From positions 1-21,711 of the forward strand of contig JAWOFX010000090.1 of the NCBI GenBank assembly GCA_046497275.1: DNA of 21,711 nt, in the 5' to 3' direction. Position numbers and translations under genes: made by a program. This DNA comes from Promethearchaeia archaeon (GTDB lineage: Archaea > Asgardarchaeota > Lokiarchaeia > Sigyniarchaeales > SOKP01). This document shows positions 1,678 to 21,486 of this stretch, in pieces (within the stretch, counting starts at the first letter, position 1; each line of letters begins with the position of its first letter). The notes beneath the pieces were generated by a model. The model saw only the letters and a program-made list of their open reading frames with translations, searched no databases and was not told the origin of the DNA.

Positions 1678-1950
1678 ATCTATTTTCTAAAATGATTTCT
1701 AAAATAAAAAATTTAATGAGATTTTAGATTATTTTCTCTATTTCTCTAATTCTTACAGAAAACTTAATACTCCTCATAATAAAAATCTAAAAAATTTAAT
1801 TTGTATCCATAATAATATCTCATTTTGATCATTCACTTCTTAGATATCGTTAATCTAACTTTCATAATCAGAAAAAATAAATTGATTCTACAATTTTTTC
1901 AATCAAGAAAAAATAATAATTATACCTTAAAATTTATGGTGATTTTTGAA

Positions 1951-1955
1951 GGGGA
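1951..1955 (+). promoter_or_regulatory. Putative ribosome-binding site of hdrA
   Basis: GGGGA 5 nt upstream of TTG at 1961. A GGTGA is also present at 1938-1942. Confidence 0.45.
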
Positions 1956-1960
1956 TTAAA

Positions 1961-3964
1961 TTGTCTGATGATAAACAGACCAAGGAAGAGATTAGAATAG
2001 GAGTTTACGTTTGTGAATGAGGTGTTAATATTGGTGCTACTGTTGATTGCGAAGCGGTAAGGGACTTTATTGAGGGGCAACCAAACGTGGTTGTTGCGAG
2101 AACCAATAAATTTACGTGTAGTGATCCCGGTCAGCAAGTTATTAGAAATGACATTTTAGAATTAGATCTTAACAGAATAGTTGTTGCGGCCTGCACTCCT
2201 AAAATTCATGAACCAACCTATAGAGCAGTATTAATTGAAGCGGGTCTTAGTCCTTATTATTTCCAAATGGTTAATATTAGAGAGCAATGTTCTTTCGTTC
2301 ATGCTGATGATAAGGAAAATGCTACAAAAAAGGCGATAAGACTTGTCATCGGAGGGATTAATCGTGCGAGAGAATTAGAAAATATTCCTCGTATAGAAAT
2401 TCCAATCGAAAATTCAGTTCTTGTCGTTGGTGCGGGAATTGCTGGAATGAATGCTGCCCTAGATTTAGCTAGTCAAGGTATAAAGGTTTATTTGGTTGAG
2501 AAAGAGGCCACCATTGGTGGAAAAATGGCACAATTAGACCGAATATTTCCTACTGATGATTGTGGGATCTGAGTATTGGCTCCAATAATGGTAAATGCAT
2601 CAAAACATCCGAATATTGAATTAATAACATATAGTGATATAATAGAATTTAGTGGTATTACAGGCAGTTATAATGTGAGGATAAGAAAAAATCCACGATA
2701 TGTTGATCCTGATAAATGCACTGGCTGTGGATTATGTACAACTAAATGTCCGATTAGTATGCCTAATGAATTTGATAGAGGTATCGGTGAACGGGGAGCA
2801 ATATATATTCCATTTCCACAAGCAGTTCCGAAACTAGCATTAATTGATAAAGAAGCGTGTATCGAATGTAAATCATGTGAGCGTACATGTCCCGGGGAGG
2901 CTATAGATTTTGAACAAGAGCCGGAATATGTTGATATAAAGGTTGGGGCTGTTATTATTGCGACTGGTTGGGATGAATATCCTATTTGGGAGTCAAATGA
3001 ATATAAATATGGTATTTATCCTGATGTAATTACTCAAATTGAATTAGAAAGGATGCTCAGTCCAATAGGACCTACTGATGGTCATGTCCATAGAATATCT
3101 GACGGTAAAATACCCAAAAAAGTTGCGATGATACAATGTGTTGGATCCAGAACGTTGAGAGGTAATCAATATTGTTCTGCTGTGTGTTGTAATGTAGCCC
3201 TAAAGAACTCTCAATTGTTAAAGCAAGAATACCCCGAAATTGAGGTTATGATATTTTATATTGACATTCGATCGCCGGATAAAGGCAATGAAGAATATTA
3301 TCGAAAGATACGGGAAGCAAATATTTCTTTTATAAAAGGAAAGCCTGGTGATATTAAATTAAATGAAGATGGTACAATGAGATTATTCTATGATAATGCG
3401 TTATTAGATGAAGTAACACATGTGGATGTAGACCTAGTAATCTTATCTACTGGAATTATTCCATCGAAAGGTACACATCAAATAATAGAGACTATGGGAT
3501 TAAGTAGTGGCCCGAATGGATTTTTATCTGAAATTCATGGATGTTTAAAACCACAAGAAACAGATAATATTGGTATTTATATTTGTGGATGCGCTGCTGG
3601 ACCTAAAAGTATTCCATATTCAGTATCAACAGCATTAGCTGCTGCGAGTAAAGCTTCAACCCTTCTTTCTAATGATACATATAGCCAAGAATTAATCATA
3701 GCAGAAGTTAATGAAGATCTATGCATGGGTTGTCATAGATGTGAAAAAGTATGTTACTATGATGCAATTAAAGTTGGAGAGAATGATATCGCGGAAGTGA
3801 ACGAATTAAAGTGCAAAGGATGTGGCGCATGTGTAACTTCTTGCCCAGCAAGAGCTATTGATATAAAATATTATCGAGAAAGACAATTTGAACAGGAAAT
3901 CAAGGGATTAGCTATGGCTGAATCAATTCCAATTAAAGAAACGAAAGCTATAGCAGAAAAATAA
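1961..3964 (+). CDS. hdrA: Heterodisulfide reductase subunit A (FAD/Fe-S electron-bifurcating flavoprotein), selenoprotein with two in-frame UGA codons (Sec20 at 2018-2020, Sec205 at 2573-2575), 667 aa
   Basis: Reading through the TGAs gives one frame: MSDDKQTKEEIRIGVYVCE-U-GVNIGATVD (HdrA N-terminal RIGVYVCxCG motif), ACTP, EQC, VVGAGIAG FAD motif, FPTDDCGI-U-VLAPIM (HdrA FPTxDCxxC motif), four ferredoxin-type CxxCxxCxxxC motifs, QCVGSR and YCSAVCC. Track ORFs 2087-2572 and 2576-3964 are in the same frame, separated only by TGA. Confidence 0.95.
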
Positions 3965-3971
3965 ACAAGTT

Positions 3972-3977
3972 GGTGAG
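3972..3977 (+). promoter_or_regulatory. Ribosome-binding site of mvhD
   Basis: GGTGAG 5 nt before ATG at 3983, within the 18-nt hdrA-mvhD spacer. This is an archaeal-type SD motif. Confidence 0.7.
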
Positions 3978-3982
3978 TATAA

Positions 3983-4402
3983 ATGTCAAAAGATAATAAA
4001 AAGAGAAATATAATTGCTTTTGCGTGCGATAAATGAGGGTACGCAGCCGCAGATTTGACGGGCACTACGAGAAAGTCGTATGATACTGATGTGAATATAA
4101 TTCGAGTCAGATGTACAGGAAGAGTTGGAATTCATTTAATTATGGATTGTTTTTTGAACGGTGCTGACGGAGTAGCCATTATTTCTTGACAAGAAGGAGA
4201 ATGCGAATTTGGAAATGGTAATATGGTCACCTATAAACATCTATCAATGTTAAAAAAAATATTTGATCATTTAGGAATTTCTGATGAGAGAATTCAGCAA
4301 TATTTTTGTTCAGCAGCCGATGTTGAGAAATTTGTAAATTCAGTGAAAGATATTCATAAGAGGATTCACAAACTACCTCCTATATCTAAGAAAACCGAAT
4401 AG
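3983..4402 (+). CDS. mvhD: MvhD/VhuD [2Fe-2S] hydrogenase/Hdr adaptor subunit, selenoprotein with two in-frame UGA codons (Sec18 at 4034-4036, Sec69 at 4187-4189), 139 aa; missing from the ORF track
   Basis: Manual translation: MSKDNKKRNIIAFACDK-U-GYAAADLTGTTRKSYDTDVNIIRVRCTGRVGIHLIMDCFLNGADGVAIIS-U-QEGECEFGNGNMVTYKHLSMLKKIFDHLGISDERIQQYFCSAADVEKFVNSVKDIHKRIHKLPPISKKTE-TAG. This matches the MvhD pattern CxxCxYxxAD...RVxCxGR...GADGV...xCxxGxC. Confidence 0.95.
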
Positions 4403-4464
4403 GATGAATCTTTCGAATAAATTTTAGTCGTAAAGATGACAGCCTCGCAAGGGTTATTTCGGTT
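4393..4464 (+). promoter_or_regulatory. Putative SECIS element of eukaryote-like (AUGA/GA kink-turn core) type
   Basis: AUGA at 4404-4407 and GA at 4438-4439. Helix AUCUUU (4408-4413) pairs with AAAGAU (4432-4437), then CGA (4414-4416) with UCG (4428-4430). AAA at 4419-4421 in the apical part. Lower helix AACCGAA (4393-4399) pairs with UUCGGUU (4458-4464). Located immediately after the stop of a two-UGA gene. Confidence 0.8.
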
Positions 4465-4519
4465 ATGAACTTTTTCATGATATTAAGTTTAAGAATTAAA
4501 AAATGTTTAAATACGAATT

Positions 4520-6022
4520 ATGAGCAATAAGGGAAGTAATGAGATAATTTTTTCAAGGAAATTCTTCAAAGCTATTATGCAAACTTTAGATTCATATAAA
4601 GTTCGAGCGTTAATTGATGCTAAAGAAGATATCATTGAAGTAGGTATCTATTCCGAAGCTCAGTATTTCAATATCTTATTTGAATTGATTGATGAAGAGA
4701 AATTAAAATATGAATTGTATGAGTATCTTAAAGAACAAGGAGAAGCTGATATTTCTCAATTAGAAATGTTTGCAAAACATAAAGATATTCGACTTAATAA
4801 AACCCTAAGTTTGTGCTATCTTTTAGAAAGAGAAGGATTAATCAATATTGAAGAAATATATGAAAAAAGCAAAAACTCTGAAGAAGAAACTTTACAAATA
4901 TTTAAAAATTTTAATTTTTCAGTAAATAATGTTGATATTACATCGATTAAACCAATTTATGAACCAGTACAAATCATATTTGACTCAAATATATGTTCGG
5001 GTTGTGGATTGTGTGCGGGTATATGTCCCATGAATTGTATTACCATAAATAATGGTTTTGGAGAAATCGATGATGATAAATGTATACGATGTGGATTATG
5101 TTATTATGTTTGTCCTCGTACTTATCTCCCAGTAAAACTTCTCAATATATATCAAGATGATGCTTCTGAAGTTAAGAATTATAGTAAAATTGGTGTTTAT
5201 AAAGAAGCATACAGTGCAAGAACGAAAATAGATGAAATAAAAGAAGTATGTCAAGATGGAGGAGTATCAAGCACTTGTTTATATTATCTTTTAGAAAATA
5301 ACAAAATAGATCTCGCAATAGGAGCAAAGATGGGAGAGAAGTTATGGTGCCCCGAACCAACTCTAATTAAAGATAAAAAAGATATAATTGAAACTGCTGG
5401 AACCAAATATGTTAACAATCCAAATCTAAAATTGTTGAATGAGATTGATCCAGAGAAAAAAGTAGCGATAGTTGGAGTACCATGTATGATGCAAGCTCTG
5501 TTAAAGTCAAAAATATATGATATTAATATTCCCCTACTGAATAACATCCAATATCGTATTGGGATTTTTTGTATGGAGTCCTTTCCTTATGAAGAGGGAT
5601 TTTTGAAGATTTGTGAGAGATTAAATGTTGAGGTTAATGATGTAAAAAAGACCGATATCAATAAAGGAAAATTCTTTGTGTATACTAAAAATGGTGAAGA
5701 ACTCAATGTTCCAATTAAAGAAGTCACAAATTTGGCAAGAGAAGATTGTGAGGTGTGTTATGATCTCACATCTGAATCTGCAGATATTTCAATAGGGTCG
5801 ATTGGAGCTCCTTCAGGATGGAATGTTGTATTAGTAAGAAATGAAAGAGGAAAAGAATTATATGACGCTTTAATAGAAAATGGTCTCATTGAATCAAAAC
5901 CTATCGAAGAAGTCAAGCCTGGACTCCCTCTTCTCCTAAAAATTGCTAACAGTAAAAAAAATAAAAGTTCTAAACATATTTTAAAAAAGATAGAAAATGA
6001 AAAAAGATATCCGTATTATTAA
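4520..6022 (+). CDS. FrhB/FdhB-family F420-binding FAD oxidoreductase subunit with a 2x[4Fe-4S] ferredoxin domain and an extra N-terminal domain of about 150 aa
   Basis: CSGCGLCAGICP and CIRCGLCYYVCP, then FrhB-type motifs QDGGVSST, AGTKY, VAIVGVPC, IGIFCMESF, CEVCYD and DISIGSIGAPSGW. Confidence 0.88.
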   Translation: MSNKGSNEIIFSRKFFKAIMQTLDSYKVRALIDAKEDIIEVGIYSEAQYFNILFELIDEEKLKYELYEYLKEQGEADISQLEMFAKHKDIRLNKTLSLCYLLEREGLINIEEIYEKSKNSEEETLQIFKNFNFSVNNVDITSIKPIYEPVQIIFDSNICSGCGLCAGICPMNCITINNGFGEIDDDKCIRCGLCYYVCPRTYLPVKLLNIYQDDASEVKNYSKIGVYKEAYSARTKIDEIKEVCQDGGVSSTCLYYLLENNKIDLAIGAKMGEKLWCPEPTLIKDKKDIIETAGTKYVNNPNLKLLNEIDPEKKVAIVGVPCMMQALLKSKIYDINIPLLNNIQYRIGIFCMESFPYEEGFLKICERLNVEVNDVKKTDINKGKFFVYTKNGEELNVPIKEVTNLAREDCEVCYDLTSESADISIGSIGAPSGWNVVLVRNERGKELYDALIENGLIESKPIEEVKPGLPLLLKIANSKKNKSSKHILKKIENEKRYPYY

Positions 6023-8666: not shown

Positions 8667-10445
8667 ATGAGTAAAATGGAGAAAAATCGCCCTATTATTG
8701 AAGAAATTAAGGATATTTATCATTATTTGACGGAAGGAGAGCCAAATCCAGATGATGAAATTGAAGCTCAAAAAGAATTAACTGAAAAATTTGAAAAATT
8801 AAAAGAATATAATGAGTTTCCAGATAAAAAGTCCCTTATCGAAGAGATCATAGCAAAATTAAAAGAGTGGGATACATTAGAATACTGGTTTATAGAGACG
8901 CCCTTGCCTAAAAAAATAGATGAATTATTACAAATCAAAAAGGAAGAGCAAACAGAAGAATCGGAATTAGAATTAGAAGAGAAAAGTAGAAAAAAATCTG
9001 AAGTTGATATATCTGAAATTATGTCTCAATTATCTGAACAATTTAAAGGGGAAATTGATACACTAAGAGAAGAAATCGATTCACTGAAAAATGAAATTAA
9101 AAATAAAGAGGATATCATCCAGACTATTAAAAGTAAAAAACAAGTAAAAAAAATCACTCCTAAAAAAGAAGGAACCTCTAAATTGCCTCCTTTAGAAATT
9201 CATTTACCGGCCGTTAAAAAAGCAGAAGAAAAAATTATGAAAGAGGCAGGAATTAGTGAGAAACAGGTTCAACGGGGTGAAGATCAAAGTAGTATCGAAT
9301 CAGTAGAAAATGAATTGTTAGACAGAGAAACGAAGCTACAGAAAAAACAAGAACAGTATAAAGAAAAATTAGAAGTCTCTTTACAGCAATTAAAAGCTAG
9401 TAAAAAGGAACAAACAGAAGAAAGAGAAGAGTTTATTGAAGTACAAGATGAAGTTATCCTGGAAAAACCTATAGAAAAACCAGAAACTGAATCTTTTAAG
9501 GAAGTAGAAATGGAAACAACTCAAAAATCTCTAGAAGAGCATTTAGTTGAGGAGAATCTCTCAGAAACAGAAGAATATAAAATTAAGAAACCAGAACTAA
9601 AAGAAAGTGAACTGTCTCCAACTAGTAAGGAAAAACAAGAGATCCAAGAACAAGAGTTAACCACCATTCCAACAAATGAAGTGTGGGAAGAAGAAAATGT
9701 GGTGACCCCCCCTCCAACAAAGCCCACTGTGTCCACAACACCTCCTACCCCTCCTCGAAAAACTATTCCTTCAAAACCTGCCCAAACTTCCGAAAAATCT
9801 TTTTCTGAACAAGAACACCATATTCCTCAGAATATTGAACAAGAAGATATGCCAAAAACACTGCCTCCAAAAAAACCAACTATATCCACTATGGCCGTTG
9901 AGGAACCCGTCAATAAGGAACTGAAACAGATGCCAGAGAAACCTCCAAAAATGAAAAGTATTGCCGAAGTCGAAGTAGAAGAAACAGAAATGCCATCTCA
10001 AGAGCCCTTAAAAACTGATTTATTTAGTGTATTCTCTTCAATGGGGAAGAAAAATGAGTCAAAACCTAAGGAAAAACCTAATCTTGAATCGATAAAAAGC
10101 TTTATACCGGGGGGAATAGAGGAAAAAAATGTTGAAAAACCTCCTGTCGAACCTCCTAAGAAAGATATTACTCCAGAACCTCCAGAAGAGGACTATTCAG
10201 AAGAAATAGAATCAAAAAGCATTGAAGAATTACCTAAGGATAAGGATGCATTATATCAAGAATTAATTGCATTAGAGGGTAAAAGATATAGTTTAGAAAA
10301 GTCTTTTAAGGAATTAGAAAAAAGATATAATAAAGGGAGCATTGACGAGCATGAATTTAAATCCGAGGGAGAAAAATTAAAAGATAGTTTAAACGAAATC
10401 ACTAGAAGAATTACTAACATACGAAGAATAGTAGCGAGTATGTAA
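8667..10445 (+). CDS. Hypothetical 592-aa acidic protein: helical N-terminus, coiled coil, long Glu/Lys/Pro-rich low-complexity linker, helical C-terminal domain
   Basis: Long open frame with typical purine-rich codon usage. Composition seen directly. No family recognised with confidence. Confidence 0.85.
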   Translation: MSKMEKNRPIIEEIKDIYHYLTEGEPNPDDEIEAQKELTEKFEKLKEYNEFPDKKSLIEEIIAKLKEWDTLEYWFIETPLPKKIDELLQIKKEEQTEESELELEEKSRKKSEVDISEIMSQLSEQFKGEIDTLREEIDSLKNEIKNKEDIIQTIKSKKQVKKITPKKEGTSKLPPLEIHLPAVKKAEEKIMKEAGISEKQVQRGEDQSSIESVENELLDRETKLQKKQEQYKEKLEVSLQQLKASKKEQTEEREEFIEVQDEVILEKPIEKPETESFKEVEMETTQKSLEEHLVEENLSETEEYKIKKPELKESELSPTSKEKQEIQEQELTTIPTNEVWEEENVVTPPPTKPTVSTTPPTPPRKTIPSKPAQTSEKSFSEQEHHIPQNIEQEDMPKTLPPKKPTISTMAVEEPVNKELKQMPEKPPKMKSIAEVEVEETEMPSQEPLKTDLFSVFSSMGKKNESKPKEKPNLESIKSFIPGGIEEKNVEKPPVEPPKKDITPEPPEEDYSEEIESKSIEELPKDKDALYQELIALEGKRYSLEKSFKELEKRYNKGSIDEHEFKSEGEKLKDSLNEITRRITNIRRIVASM

Positions 10446-12555: not shown

Positions 12556-14427
12556 TTGAAAAATATAGAATCTGATATGGAAAAATTGCTAAAACAATTA
12601 GAAAAGCTTATTTCTCAGAAGAAATATAGTAAAGCAAATTATATTCTTCACAAGATAGATTTACGAGAGGAAAGATTCTTAAAAAATTACTTAAATCGTA
12701 AACAAGAAGGAGTCTATTACACAGACTCAAACTTATCACATTTTATTTTCCAAAAAACATTACTATTATATCTAAATAAGAGATTAAGATTAAAATTAAG
12801 GGACATAAGTGATATTTATAATCTGGATAAAAATCTAAAGGTTAAAATAGATAATATTCTCAAAAAACTTACAATTTGTGATCCAACCTGTGGCTCGGGT
12901 AATTTTTTAGTAAATGCAGCAGAAATCCTCTTTTCAATTCTTAATGAAATTAATAGAGAAAGAGACAACGTTGAAATCAAAACTCAAATTCTTAAAAATC
13001 TCTATGGATTTGACATTAATGAATCTTCGCTCACGCTTTCTAAATTAAAGTTATTAAGATGGTTTTTTAATAGACAATATGATAACTTTTCAGAAATTAA
13101 ATCCCTACTAGATTCAAATTTACAGAAAAAAAACAGTCTTTTAGATTCTGAACTCTCTGAATTTGATATAGAAGGAAACAAATTAGATATAATCATTGGA
13201 AATCCTCCATATGGAAATATCCTAACTGATAAAGAGAAGAAAGTATTAAAAGAACACAATATCTATTTTCAAGATGTTTATTGCGCTTATCTATTAAAAG
13301 CCTTGGAATTATGTAAGGGAGTGATTGGATTCCTGGTTCCAAAAAGTTTTCTTTTAAGACAAAGCTACGTAAATTTTCGTAATAAATTGTTATCTCAATC
13401 AAATTTATTGCGAATATATGATTTGGGCTCAGACATTTTTAAAGATGCTACAAATGAAGTTCAGATTTTAATTTACTCTAATAAACAGAAAAATCAACAA
13501 GATCTAGTAATTTATGATTATCCAGATAAAAAGAATATAACATTTCAAAATCAATATTTTGATGACCTAAATGTTTGTTTTAACCCTGCTTGTCCATTAA
13601 ATGATAAAGCAAAAAAGTTCTATGTATATACTCATAAAGATAAATGCTCATATTGTTCCAATTCTACAAAGCCCTTAAATCGCGTAAGAGTGAAAGTTAC
13701 TAAGAAAATCTTTAATATAATCAATAGAATTGAGAGAAAAGGGGACCTAAACTATTTGAGCGTGAAGGATTACCCCAAGTTTATAAGAGGAGAGGAAGCT
13801 AAAGGATTATCGATAATCAAAAGAGCACTTAAAGAAAAAACTCAAGGATCATGTTTTTTTATAGATGCAAAACGAGATTTTGAATATTTTTACTTTAAAA
13901 AATCACAGAAATTTGACCTAGATAAAGTAGATGAAGACTTACTTAAAGGAGAAAATAAAGAATATTACCAAGGATCGAAGTTGTTAATAAAACATAATAA
14001 TATCTATCCCGAAGCACTTTATACTAGGAAAGATACTTGTTTTACTTCTTCAATCTATTCCTTACTTTATGAAGATCCGAATGAATTAATGTTTCTCTGC
14101 GGATTATTAAATTCAATATTAATTCAATTTTATACAATCTATGGTATTAATAATCAAAAAGGAACCACTATTAATTTAAATCAATATATGATTAGACATC
14201 TCCCCATCATCAATGTTCAAAAAGATAAAAGAGAGGAGATTTCTAAACTAGTTGAACTGATCACGTATGATTTAGATATAAATGAAAAATTAAATCAGCG
14301 TACGATAAGTTTTGTTAAAAAATTAAATGATTGTGTATTTAATTTATATTCTATGAATGAGGGAGATCAAGCATTAATGAAAGCCAAAGTAAAATTATTT
14401 AATCCTTACTTCGATTTGATTTACTAA
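12556..14427 (+). CDS. Amino-DNA methyltransferase, gamma class (Eco57I/TaqI-like, likely m6A), with C-terminal TaqI_C-like target-recognition region
   Basis: SAM motif I ICDPTCGSGNFL, LYGFDIN, catalytic motif IV IIGNPPY, GFLVPKSFL and C-terminal LCGLLNSILIQFY...LPI. Start could be TTG 12556 or ATG 12577. Confidence 0.88.
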   Translation: MKNIESDMEKLLKQLEKLISQKKYSKANYILHKIDLREERFLKNYLNRKQEGVYYTDSNLSHFIFQKTLLLYLNKRLRLKLRDISDIYNLDKNLKVKIDNILKKLTICDPTCGSGNFLVNAAEILFSILNEINRERDNVEIKTQILKNLYGFDINESSLTLSKLKLLRWFFNRQYDNFSEIKSLLDSNLQKKNSLLDSELSEFDIEGNKLDIIIGNPPYGNILTDKEKKVLKEHNIYFQDVYCAYLLKALELCKGVIGFLVPKSFLLRQSYVNFRNKLLSQSNLLRIYDLGSDIFKDATNEVQILIYSNKQKNQQDLVIYDYPDKKNITFQNQYFDDLNVCFNPACPLNDKAKKFYVYTHKDKCSYCSNSTKPLNRVRVKVTKKIFNIINRIERKGDLNYLSVKDYPKFIRGEEAKGLSIIKRALKEKTQGSCFFIDAKRDFEYFYFKKSQKFDLDKVDEDLLKGENKEYYQGSKLLIKHNNIYPEALYTRKDTCFTSSIYSLLYEDPNELMFLCGLLNSILIQFYTIYGINNQKGTTINLNQYMIRHLPIINVQKDKREEISKLVELITYDLDINEKLNQRTISFVKKLNDCVFNLYSMNEGDQALMKAKVKLFNPYFDLIY

Positions 14428-19829: not shown

Positions 19830-20330
19830 ATGGATCCTCTCCTAACTCATGATAAAAATTCAAAAAAATCAAATCCGTCTAATAATGATAGTATAGACAA
19901 AAGAGCCAAAGAATTATTAAAAGAAACCAAAGTTCTAAATCTCGCAAAATTAGCAAATATGTTAGTCAGTTTATTTGGATTAGAAGATGGATTTAAGAAA
20001 ATCACAAAGAGAGAAGGTCAAGAAGTTGAACTATATATCCCCGCTTTTGAGGGGTATTTAAATTTTCCACTTGTAAAAAAAAAAGATAATTTCGAATGTA
20101 GAGCAGAACGTGCTAATGATCCAGTAGCAACTGTGATAATAAATGTAGAGGAAGATAAAGTTTTAAAGGTTTTTAGTGAAATTATAAGAAGTAAAGCAAA
20201 TTTATCTGGACTTATCAAACTAGTTCCAAAAATTCTCTTAAGAAAAATAAAAATAAAAGGCTCATTAATGGCTGCATTAAGCCTTGTGAAATGCCTCATG
20301 ATTGGGAAAAATAAAATATACAAAAAATAA
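19830..20330 (+). CDS. Hypothetical protein, possible SCP2-like lipid-binding fold
   Basis: Beta-rich core then ...RKIKIKGSLMAALSL, resembling the kikikG...al.l end of SCP2 domains. Weak recognition only. Confidence 0.5.
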   Translation: MDPLLTHDKNSKKSNPSNNDSIDKRAKELLKETKVLNLAKLANMLVSLFGLEDGFKKITKREGQEVELYIPAFEGYLNFPLVKKKDNFECRAERANDPVATVIINVEEDKVLKVFSEIIRSKANLSGLIKLVPKILLRKIKIKGSLMAALSLVKCLMIGKNKIYKK

Positions 20331-20343
20331 ATTTAGAGTAGAG

Positions 20344-21486
20344 ATGACTCAATTAAACAATGATTCTTTTTTAGAAATCGCGGAAAAGATACCAAATCAA
20401 TATATTGAAAATAGCGATAAAAAAATCGCAGGATATTATTGTACTTATATTCCAGAGGAATTATTAGATGCTGCAGGTTTATTTCCCTATCGGATAAGAG
20501 CGACTGGTAATGCTGATACTGATAAAGCAGATACCTATATGGTTCGATTCACTTGCTCTTTTGTTAGAAGCACCCTAAATCTTGCGTTAGAAGGGGTTTA
20601 TGATTTCTTGGATGGATTATTCATATGCAATAGCTGTGATCATAGTAGAAGGATGTATGAAATTTATGATATGGTTGTATTTAAGCGTAAAGGCTTCAAC
20701 AAAAAAGTACCTAGATTTTATATTTCAATACCTCATATTCTTTCTGAAGAAGGCTTAGAGTGGTTTTTAGGTGAAATTTATGAACTTAAAGATAATATAG
20801 AAAAAGCTTATGAAATAAAAATAACTGATGATGCTTTGGTTAAATCTATAGAATTGTATAATAGAAATCGAGAACTAATGAGAAAGATTAATGAATTAAG
20901 ATTATTAGATTCACCAAAATTGACGGGAAGCGAAGCCTTAAAGATATCTATGGCAAATACATCTGTACCAAAAGAAGTTGCTAATCAAGAATTAGAGAGA
21001 TTATTGGAAATATATAATTATAAAGATGGAATAGAAACACAAGGTAAGAAGAGAATTTTATTATTGGGAAGCGTTGTGGATAATACTCAATTCACACAAT
21101 TAATTGAAAGTGCAAATGCAATTATTATATCAGACAACCTTTGTTTCGGAAATAAGGTAATTATTGATGATGTAGAGAGAAATGAATCAGAATCCCCATT
21201 GGAGAGTATTACTAGACGACTATATTATCGCTTATCTTGCCCCAGAATGATGCAAGATCATCAAAGAAGGCTTGATTTCGTTAAAAATGAAATTAAGAAG
21301 GGAAAAATTGATGGCGTTCTTTTACAACGTATCAATAATTGTGATTTGCATGGATGTGACAATATGTTGTTTGAACATGAATTAAAAAAATTAGAAATCC
21401 CTGTTTTCAATTTAGATAGAGAGAATTTCCAGTCAGATACAAACAGATTACAGACTCGTATTGAAGCTTTTTTAGAAATGATTTAA
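20344..21486 (+). CDS. 2-hydroxyacyl-CoA dehydratase subunit (HgdB/FldC/BcrB-BadD family)
   Basis: GYYCTYIPEELLDAAG, FTCSFVRS, CNSCDHSRR, DNLCFG, SCPRM, CDLHGCD and RLQTRIEAFLEMI. ATG 20344 is preferred because it avoids the overlap of the track start at 20302. Confidence 0.9.
   Translation: MTQLNNDSFLEIAEKIPNQYIENSDKKIAGYYCTYIPEELLDAAGLFPYRIRATGNADTDKADTYMVRFTCSFVRSTLNLALEGVYDFLDGLFICNSCDHSRRMYEIYDMVVFKRKGFNKKVPRFYISIPHILSEEGLEWFLGEIYELKDNIEKAYEIKITDDALVKSIELYNRNRELMRKINELRLLDSPKLTGSEALKISMANTSVPKEVANQELERLLEIYNYKDGIETQGKKRILLLGSVVDNTQFTQLIESANAIIISDNLCFGNKVIIDDVERNESESPLESITRRLYYRLSCPRMMQDHQRRLDFVKNEIKKGKIDGVLLQRINNCDLHGCDNMLFEHELKKLEIPVFNLDRENFQSDTNRLQTRIEAFLEMI

Follow-up and report, generated by a model that had tools for sequence, protein, structure and literature searches.

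We report that a stretch of 21,711 nucleotides from a Promethearchaeia archaeon (Asgardarchaeota; Lokiarchaeia; Sigyniarchaeales; SOKP01), contig JAWOFX010000090.1 of assembly GCA_046497275.1 and hereafter referred to as the window, carries the genes hdrA and mvhD (also known as vhuD) in tandem, with four in-frame UGA codons that almost certainly encode selenocysteine (Sec) and with one selenocysteine insertion sequence (SECIS) element of the lokiSECIS type directly after mvhD. It is likely, in our assessment, that the two genes form a bicistronic selenoprotein operon, in which the four UGAs of a single mRNA are served by this one element. Orthologous operons were collected from 20 related genomes, giving 21 operons together with that of the window, and compared in codon alignments. 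The features of the operon are as follows:

1961-3964, plus strand: hdrA (heterodisulfide-reductase subunit A), 667 codons, TTG start, TAA stop
2018-2020, plus strand: UGA, predicted Sec20 of HdrA, motif C-x-U; TGA in 21/21 orthologs and in the RNA contigs X4 and X9
2570-2572, plus strand: UGA, predicted Sec204 of HdrA, motif C-x-x-U, the canonical HdrA Sec site; TGA in 21/21 orthologs
3965-3982, plus strand: intercistronic spacer of 18 nt, with a Shine-Dalgarno-like GGTGA at 3972-3976, seven bases before the ATG
3983-4402, plus strand: mvhD/vhuD (FlpD family), 139 codons, ATG start, TAG stop
4034-4036, plus strand: UGA, predicted Sec18 of MvhD, motif C-x-x-U, opposite Cys of 5odc_D and 9sw2_D; TGA in 21/21 orthologs
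4187-4189, plus strand: UGA, predicted Sec69 of MvhD, motif U-x4-C, opposite Cys of 5odc_D and 9sw2_D; TGA in 18/21 orthologs
4391-4469, plus strand: the whole SECIS, a predicted three-way junction (covariance-model match, minimum free energy fold and covariation)

Judged by its sequence, the first gene of the pair is almost certainly an HdrA selenoprotein gene. Its TTG start is preceded by AAGGGGA (1949-1955), and the product has an FAD/NAD Rossmann domain and four Fer4 stretches in Pfam as well as full-length matches (phmmer) to the PDB chains 9sfi_A (2.2e-213) and 5odc_A (3.6e-206). The match to 9sfi_A spans HdrA residues 11-652, and the complete HdrA architecture of an FAD domain with four [4Fe-4S] motifs is present. 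MvhD represents a full FlpD domain (Pfam PF02662, 2.7e-39, 122 of 123 profile positions) and matches 5odc_D at 6.5e-28. In the phmmer alignments HdrA U20 stands opposite Cys in both 9sfi_A and 8rvu_a, and U204 opposite X (Sec) of 9sfi_A and Cys of 8rvu_a, such that all four UGAs face Cys or Sec in HdrA and MvhD structures. This agrees with the original prediction, made from the window sequence alone, that the UGAs occupy Cys positions of these families while the other Cys codons are TGT or TGC; the latter number 29 in hdrA and five in mvhD, without exception. Three of the four TGAs had been placed correctly (2018, 4034 and 4187), and the fourth starts at 2570 rather than at 2573, which is the base after the codon. 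Given that TGA is kept in 21, 21, 21 and 18 of the 21 operons, the four positions are not due to chance. The three operons that deviate at MvhD-69 have TGT or TGC there, and at HdrA residue 78, a third site, two genomes have TGA and 19 have Cys.

The TGAs are not assembly errors, since they recur without difference in contigs from independent RNA libraries. Specifically, RNA contig X4 covers 1905-4320 with a single mismatch (at 3433) and has all four TGAs intact, and X9, from another study, covers 1909-2284 with zero mismatches. A DNA run of a fourth study has the same TGAs at 2570, 4034 and 4187. The stop codons show a further pattern: among the 21 operons hdrA ends with TAA (20) or TAG (one) and never with TGA, while six mvhD orthologs end with TGA, adjoining the SECIS. 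That the hdrA stop is never UGA was noted by Mariotti et al. 2016 (PMC4989117), who explained that a UGA at this distance from the SECIS would be recoded, whereas the mvhD stop is too close. In an open reading frame list based on translation table 11, hdrA is cut into 2087-2572 and 2576-3964 and mvhD into fragments of 44 and 59 amino acids. It had been claimed that this list splits hdrA and drops mvhD entirely; hdrA is indeed cut at 2572, and of mvhD only the two fragments are left.

The spacer between the genes has the predicted length of 18 nt. In the orthologs the genes are separated by 9-22 nt or overlap by 8 nt, and a GGTGA-like motif is found in nearly all of them. At two of these loci (L087 of genome G021 and L089 of genome G007) no ATG, GTG or TTG lies in the mvhD frame downstream of the Shine-Dalgarno-like motif and upstream of the first Sec codon. 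Here the start is likely AUA or AUU, which hints that the second cistron is initiated in a non-canonical or coupled way.

The element after mvhD has the shape of a lokiSECIS. Its AUGA/GA core (AUGA at 4404-4407, GA at 4438-4439) begins 2 nt after the mvhD stop, and is followed by a 9-bp stem with one bulged U, referred to as P2 (4408-4416 paired with 4428-4437), and an 11-nt apical loop (4417-4427, AUAAAUUUUAG) that is A-rich at its start and has AG at its end. The location is likewise that of a lokiSECIS, i.e., behind the stop of a UGA-containing gene in a genome with Sec machinery. The AUGA is invariant in 22 orthologs. One ortholog, from genome G024 (locus L055 / L090), has the core AUGC...AA in place of AUGA...GA/AA and keeps three UGAs; the AUGC is either a tolerated variant or a sequence error.

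To count the elements we used a covariance model (R1) built from seven orthologs, with the window left out. Scanning the 21.7-kb window with filters off gave one significant match, at 4391-4469 (40.6 bits, E 9e-8), the second best being at 12843 (13.6 bits, E 0.48), and in 1961-4390, also with filters off, nothing better than E = 9.4 was obtained. On the 21 orthologous 4.7-kb operons the model returned one strong match apiece, always just after mvhD; one operon (L081) has two additional weak matches (E 0.13 and 0.71) farther downstream. The original prediction that the sole convincing SECIS follows mvhD is borne out by these scans. Moreover, sliding RNAalifold along the 21 codon-aligned operons detected no conserved RNA structure in the coding regions (98 scanning windows in hdrA and 19 in mvhD): the structure conservation index reaches at most 0.12 in hdrA and is 0 in mvhD, while the SECIS has 1.01 in a model-fitted and 0.52 in a MAFFT alignment. 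Synonymous-site variability is average after both hdrA UGAs (percentiles 0.47-0.76) and somewhat low over the 12 codons after mvhD UGA69 (4th percentile). Taken together, the model scan, the RNAalifold scan and the synonymous sites point to a single element, after mvhD, as far as computation shows. A simpler pattern search (ATGA-N9-loop-N9-GA/AA with nine pairs) gave 46 matches genome-wide, mostly AT-rich noise, and was dropped in favour of the covariance model.

For transcript evidence we used public runs, comprising three RNA libraries from three studies of salt-lake metatranscriptomes, as assembled contigs and not as reads; regions without RNA-contig cover were not counted as evidence of absence. 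In X4 the RNA-contig depth is 75-115 over 1968-4305. The upstream flank (1634-1800) has an RNA depth of 0 and a depth of about 90 in the DNA run X6, and downstream (4473-4639) the RNA-contig depth is 0.9-1.9 in three RNA runs from the three studies compared to about 63 in the DNA run. Because the DNA run is flat at 60-100 throughout, the signal represents RNA and not contaminating DNA. The hdrA-mvhD junction is bridged by contigs of two studies (X4, 1905-4320, and X11, 3552-4404). Separate transcripts for the two genes had been named as an observation that would speak against the operon; the bridging contigs are consistent with a joint transcript. The features that may delimit the transcript are:

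1872-1883, plus strand: A/T-rich TATA-like box, a putative promoter read from the sequence; the apparent 5' end of the RNA follows about 26 nt downstream
1905-1909, plus strand: apparent transcript 5' end, a weak hint from contig starts in two studies (X4 at 1905, X9 at 1909)
4471-4475, plus strand: T5 run, a candidate archaeal terminator directly after the SECIS, where the RNA cover drops

The X9 start at 1909 is immediately preceded by adapter letters and GGG, and a run of at least five Ts is present no more than about 80 nt from the stop in 10 of the 21 orthologs. In the FrhB/FdhB-like gene that follows, the RNA-contig depth is far below that of hdrA-mvhD. As a separate observation, the high-depth RNA contigs (X4, X9, X11) join 1987 to 2270, with 282 nt skipped and sides of only 30 letters, and there is a further joint (2469>2797; joint sides 30-33 letters) together with loose ends at 1958, 2302, 2513 and 2563. 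These joints and ends most likely come from paralogous or foreign hdrA and were not used as evidence.

The genome (3.85 Mb, 98.9 % complete) was searched for the Sec machinery, as had been proposed, and the components named were present. A tRNA-Sec gene scores 49.4 bits, over the Rfam cut-off, and is adjoined by SepSecS (486 bits). PSTK-like (173 bits) and EFSec/SelB-like (234 bits) genes are clear best matches under the curated cut-offs, the latter about 3.3 kb from a second tRNA-Sec copy on contig C165, and the SelD gene itself carries one in-frame TGA. The genome has three more mvhD paralogs with two TGAs each, and further R1 matches were obtained after these UGA-containing paralogs and after a vhuA-vhuU pair; model matches with the three-way junction are those after the mvhD paralogs on contigs C109 and C171 and after the vhuA-vhuU pair on C44.

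The locus has the shared-SECIS HdrA-VhuD configuration, i.e., both genes on the same strand, a short spacer, an hdrA stop that is not UGA and one SECIS after vhuD. In the mechanism that we consider likely, the RNA would start near 1905 and end mostly near the T-run at 4471-4475, and HdrA would be translated from the TTG at 1961 and MvhD from the ATG at 3983 with its own Shine-Dalgarno-like motif. EFSec·GTP·Sec-tRNA(Sec) would be recruited via the 3' element and handed on to ribosomes that have paused at one or another of the four UGAs. Measured from its core, the lokiSECIS at 4391-4469 would act over 215 nt for the nearest UGA to 2386 nt for the farthest, in keeping with the predicted distance of about 2.4 kb, and for the two hdrA UGAs it would act across a stop and a re-initiation site. 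An SBP2 homologue has not been reported for any of the Asgard genomes. Since the element overlaps the last mvhD codons and the stop, every terminating ribosome would presumably have to unfold it. The interpretation with one 3' element is supported in that the Cys positions, the Sec machinery, the bridging contigs and the independent assemblies, each named with the original prediction as able to overturn it, all turned out in its favour; that Sec is inserted and that the SECIS serves hdrA as well as mvhD is what we infer from the sequences.

Several points weigh against this interpretation. The longest RNA contigs end at 4320 and 4404, and the SECIS is present only in contigs of lower depth (4464-4485: 5.6 in X9 and 4 in X11). 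The RNA evidence is consistent with one hdrA-mvhD-SECIS mRNA and, coming from assembled contigs, is no proof of a single molecule. The Rfam SECIS families failed to recognise the element, both in the whole window at the gathering threshold and in 3900-4600 at E values up to 10, where chance snoRNA-like matches were the only ones; Mariotti et al. (PMC4989117) likewise found the Rfam models blind to the lokiSECIS. As a single sequence, 4400-4520 has a folding energy that is unremarkable compared to shuffles (z = -0.08), and energy alone thus does not identify the element. The PSTK-like and EFSec-like matches lie under the curated cut-offs of models that were trained on other lineages. Reporter work in M. 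maripaludis covered only single-cistron distances, up to 679 nt, and both here and in the literature Sec insertion and cross-cistron action of the SECIS are deduced.

The caveat about assembled contigs bears on the idea that the genes are transcribed separately, from a promoter in the 3' part of hdrA, such that the SECIS would be in cis with mvhD only and HdrA would be truncated or dependent on an element in trans. An internal promoter in hdrA is possible, and the two orthologs without a canonical mvhD start at the expected place hint at unusual initiation. Against this, the genes are 18 nt apart or overlapping, the junction is crossed by an RNA contig of uniform depth and likewise by a contig of a second study, and a truncated HdrA is implausible because both hdrA UGAs are kept in 21 of 21 lineages under purifying selection; we therefore regard separate transcripts as improbable. 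A local element in hdrA, the spacer or mvhD that recodes the hdrA UGAs, with the downstream SECIS serving mvhD only, is equally improbable. It would resemble the bacterial situation, where SECIS elements sit just 3' of the UGA, and the low synonymous variability in the 12 codons after mvhD UGA69 could be read in its favour. Yet the R1 scan of 1961-4390, the structure conservation indices of the coding regions and the average synonymous variability after the hdrA UGAs (all given above) provide no sign of such an element, and the RNAz scans of Mariotti et al. (PMC4989117) gave nothing else either.

It is hardly credible that the TGAs arose through faulty sequencing or assembly or are lesions of pseudogenes, or that UGA has been reassigned genome-wide to a standard amino acid. 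Not one of 15 genes in the window has a TGA stop, and taken by itself the window thus does not establish UGA as a stop; however, the independent RNA and DNA assemblies share the TGAs, the conservation in 21 of 21 operons falls exactly at Cys/Sec columns, in-frame TGAs are missing from the 13 other genes of the window, a TGA beside the SECIS terminates six of 21 mvhD orthologs, and the genome has a full Sec machinery. One mRNA with a single shared lokiSECIS remains our preferred reading of the locus.

The finding of hdrA and mvhD with a single SECIS is correct and, apart from the junction detail described below, already known, having been published in 2016 and 2024; the novelty implied in the original prediction does not hold. 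Mariotti et al. 2016 (Mol Biol Evol 33:2441, PMC4989117) described Loki HdrA-VhuD tandems with very short spacers and multi-Sec HdrA, and a single lokiSECIS after VhuD that is common to HdrA and VhuD, probably on a polycistronic mRNA, with up to six UGAs over about 2 kb. As stated with the original prediction, HdrA and VhuD are known archaeal selenoproteins, and Lokiarchaeota are reported to use eukaryote-like SECIS elements. The window shares with those tandems the lineage, the gene order, the short spacer, the Sec near residue 200, the two-Sec VhuD and the hdrA stop that is never UGA, as well as the AUGA, the 9-bp stem, the 11-nt A-rich loop ending in AG and the GA of an element directly after vhuD. 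Nothing essential differs, although the copy in the window has a one-base bulge in the 3' stem arm. Huang, Xiao, Zhang et al. 2024 (ISME J 18:wrae111, PMC11227280) described Asgard eSECIS-like type I elements and hdrA-frhD clusters and generalised the model over 227 Sec-using Asgard genomes; the AUGA_GA and AUGA_AA cores reported there are both present among the orthologs here. They also name an Asgard-specific hypothetical protein that is encoded near Sec genes. The HdrA and VhuD of Methanococcales and Methanopyrus (structures 9sfi and 5odc) are orthologous proteins with the same canonical HdrA Sec site and two VhuD Sec sites, and hdrA-vhuD synteny and a 3'-UTR SECIS are found there as in the window. 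In contrast, there is only one Sec in their HdrA, their SECIS belongs to another type (GAA_A bulge), and hdrA keeps its own SECIS (PMC4989117).

At the level of predicted secondary structure, the SECIS is a covarying three-way junction with the topology of a k-junction. Beyond the core and P2, a closing helix (P1) pairs 4393-4399 with 4458-4464, its 5' strand belonging to the final codons of mvhD; the mvhD stop lies in the junction strand UAGG (4400-4403); and a side hairpin (P3, 4441-4445 paired with 4451-4455) occupies the non-bulged strand, with the 3' GA on one side and P1 on the other, which is the topology that defines a k-junction. The minimum free energy fold of the window sequence on its own has the same three helices as the model. 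Most of the 22 orthologs also fold individually to the three-way junction, as do the paralogs on contigs C109 and C124 of the same genome, the SECIS on contig C185 (see below) and GC-rich relatives at the order level that have a GUGA core. The junction is absent from the own folds of four orthologs and of the paralog on C171. It was seen at loci L037-L065 and L066-L071.

Covariation was assessed in a model-guided alignment of 31 sequences, in which 92.9 % of the cells are paired compared to 68.9 % in shuffles and no more than 61 % with slid partners. Double compensatory changes are present in 21 of 21 pairs (7/7 in P1, 9/9 in P2 and 5/5 in P3). For P1 and P3 the model-guided alignment leans towards the model, a bias that is offset by the slide and shuffle controls and by the independent folds. 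In an unbiased MAFFT alignment compensatory changes are found in 8 of the 8 predicted pairs of P2; because MAFFT mis-registers P1 and P3 in the 3' regions, RNAalifold on that alignment recovers P2 alone.

The k-junction (Wang, Daldrop, Huang, Lilley 2014, NAR 42:5322, PMC4005666), which has the same secondary-structure topology, is known from TPP riboswitches and rRNA and not from SECIS elements, and the loop before the GA is longer here (UAGG + AU). The main text of Mariotti et al. describes a hairpin only, in contrast to the closing helix and side hairpin seen here, and neither of these two helices is mentioned in the main texts of PMC4989117 and PMC11227280. The model in the latter consists of quartet, upper stem and apical loop, and no conserved nucleotides were reported in the lower stem or internal loop, whereas the downstream hairpin and the closing helix covary here in every copy examined. 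We tentatively suggest, as a possibility for which the odds are rather against, that the functional Asgard SECIS would be a k-junction extending beyond the published hairpin, with P1 drawn from the last selenoprotein codons, the stop in the junction and a T-helix side hairpin.

Two other open reading frames with in-frame TGAs were observed elsewhere in the genome. One, of 160 codons (C118:76016-76492, minus strand; locus L071:1590-2072, minus strand), has adjacent TGA TGA after Gly-Cys (..SGC-U-U..), no Pfam match, and an R1 SECIS match (27.9 bits) about 20 nt downstream. Of 25 related genomes searched, 20 contain homologues (with its own genome, 21 of 26), nearly all of which keep two or three in-frame TGAs, and the family is not named among the selenoprotein families in the main texts of PMC4989117 and PMC11227280. 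The other, of 132 codons (C185:8310-8708, plus strand), has one in-frame TGA (..NST-U-TTFF..), overlaps at its end with a SECIS-shaped three-way junction at 8705, and may be a Prx-like selenoprotein. Within the window, an open reading frame at 20284-21486 (HGD-D family), with two TGAs when TGA is read as U, was rejected as a selenoprotein since both TGAs lie upstream of the real start.

The gene downstream of the operon is as follows:

4520-6022, plus strand: FrhB/FdhB-like iron-sulfur flavoprotein gene (Pfam FrhB_FdhB_N, FrhB_FdhB_C and Fer4), without UGA

It lies directly 3' of mvhD in 21 of 21 genomes (the window and 20 related loci, L072-L091), which suggests that the complex is of an HdrA-MvhD-FrhB type and not coupled to a hydrogenase; the product, whose first approximately 150 residues have no Pfam match, is a probable partner subunit. 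Upstream of hdrA, on the opposite strand, is a seryl-tRNA synthetase gene, and elsewhere the window has ribosomal-protein genes and genes for NAD synthase, a type IIG-like methyltransferase and carotenoid-type functions. The carotenoid-type cluster of this Lokiarchaeial genome (16478-19359, minus strand) comprises Caroten_synth, a flavin amine-oxidase/desaturase-like gene and a lycopene-cyclase domain. The 15 confidently called window genes (103-21486) have 13 TAA and two TAG stops and no TGA; UGA stops appear to be rare in this Sec-using genome of 30 % GC.

Because gene callers break both hdrA and mvhD, the annotation of HdrA/MvhD-based electron bifurcation in Asgard archaea will contain systematic errors as long as UGA is not taken for Sec. 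The puzzle posed in 2016, how one 3' element acts on four UGAs in two cistrons without SBP2, is the same here, and the locus is no more testable than the published ones. To the published model our data add, for one, that two hdrA UGAs and one strong SECIS match per operon are kept in 21 of 21 genomes, and further that one hdrA-mvhD transcript with silent flanks would fit the metatranscriptome contigs of three studies. Moreover, there is strong covariation for a k-junction-like three-way-junction SECIS that overlaps the mvhD stop, which gives RNA constructs for binding and reporter assays. If the functional element is indeed such a junction, its extra parts could dock a still-unknown factor that replaces SBP2. 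Ribosomes terminating on mvhD would then melt P1 and the core, which could couple termination to the re-forming of the Sec-delivery complex, and the re-formed complex would serve UGAs up to 2.4 kb upstream in the other cistron.

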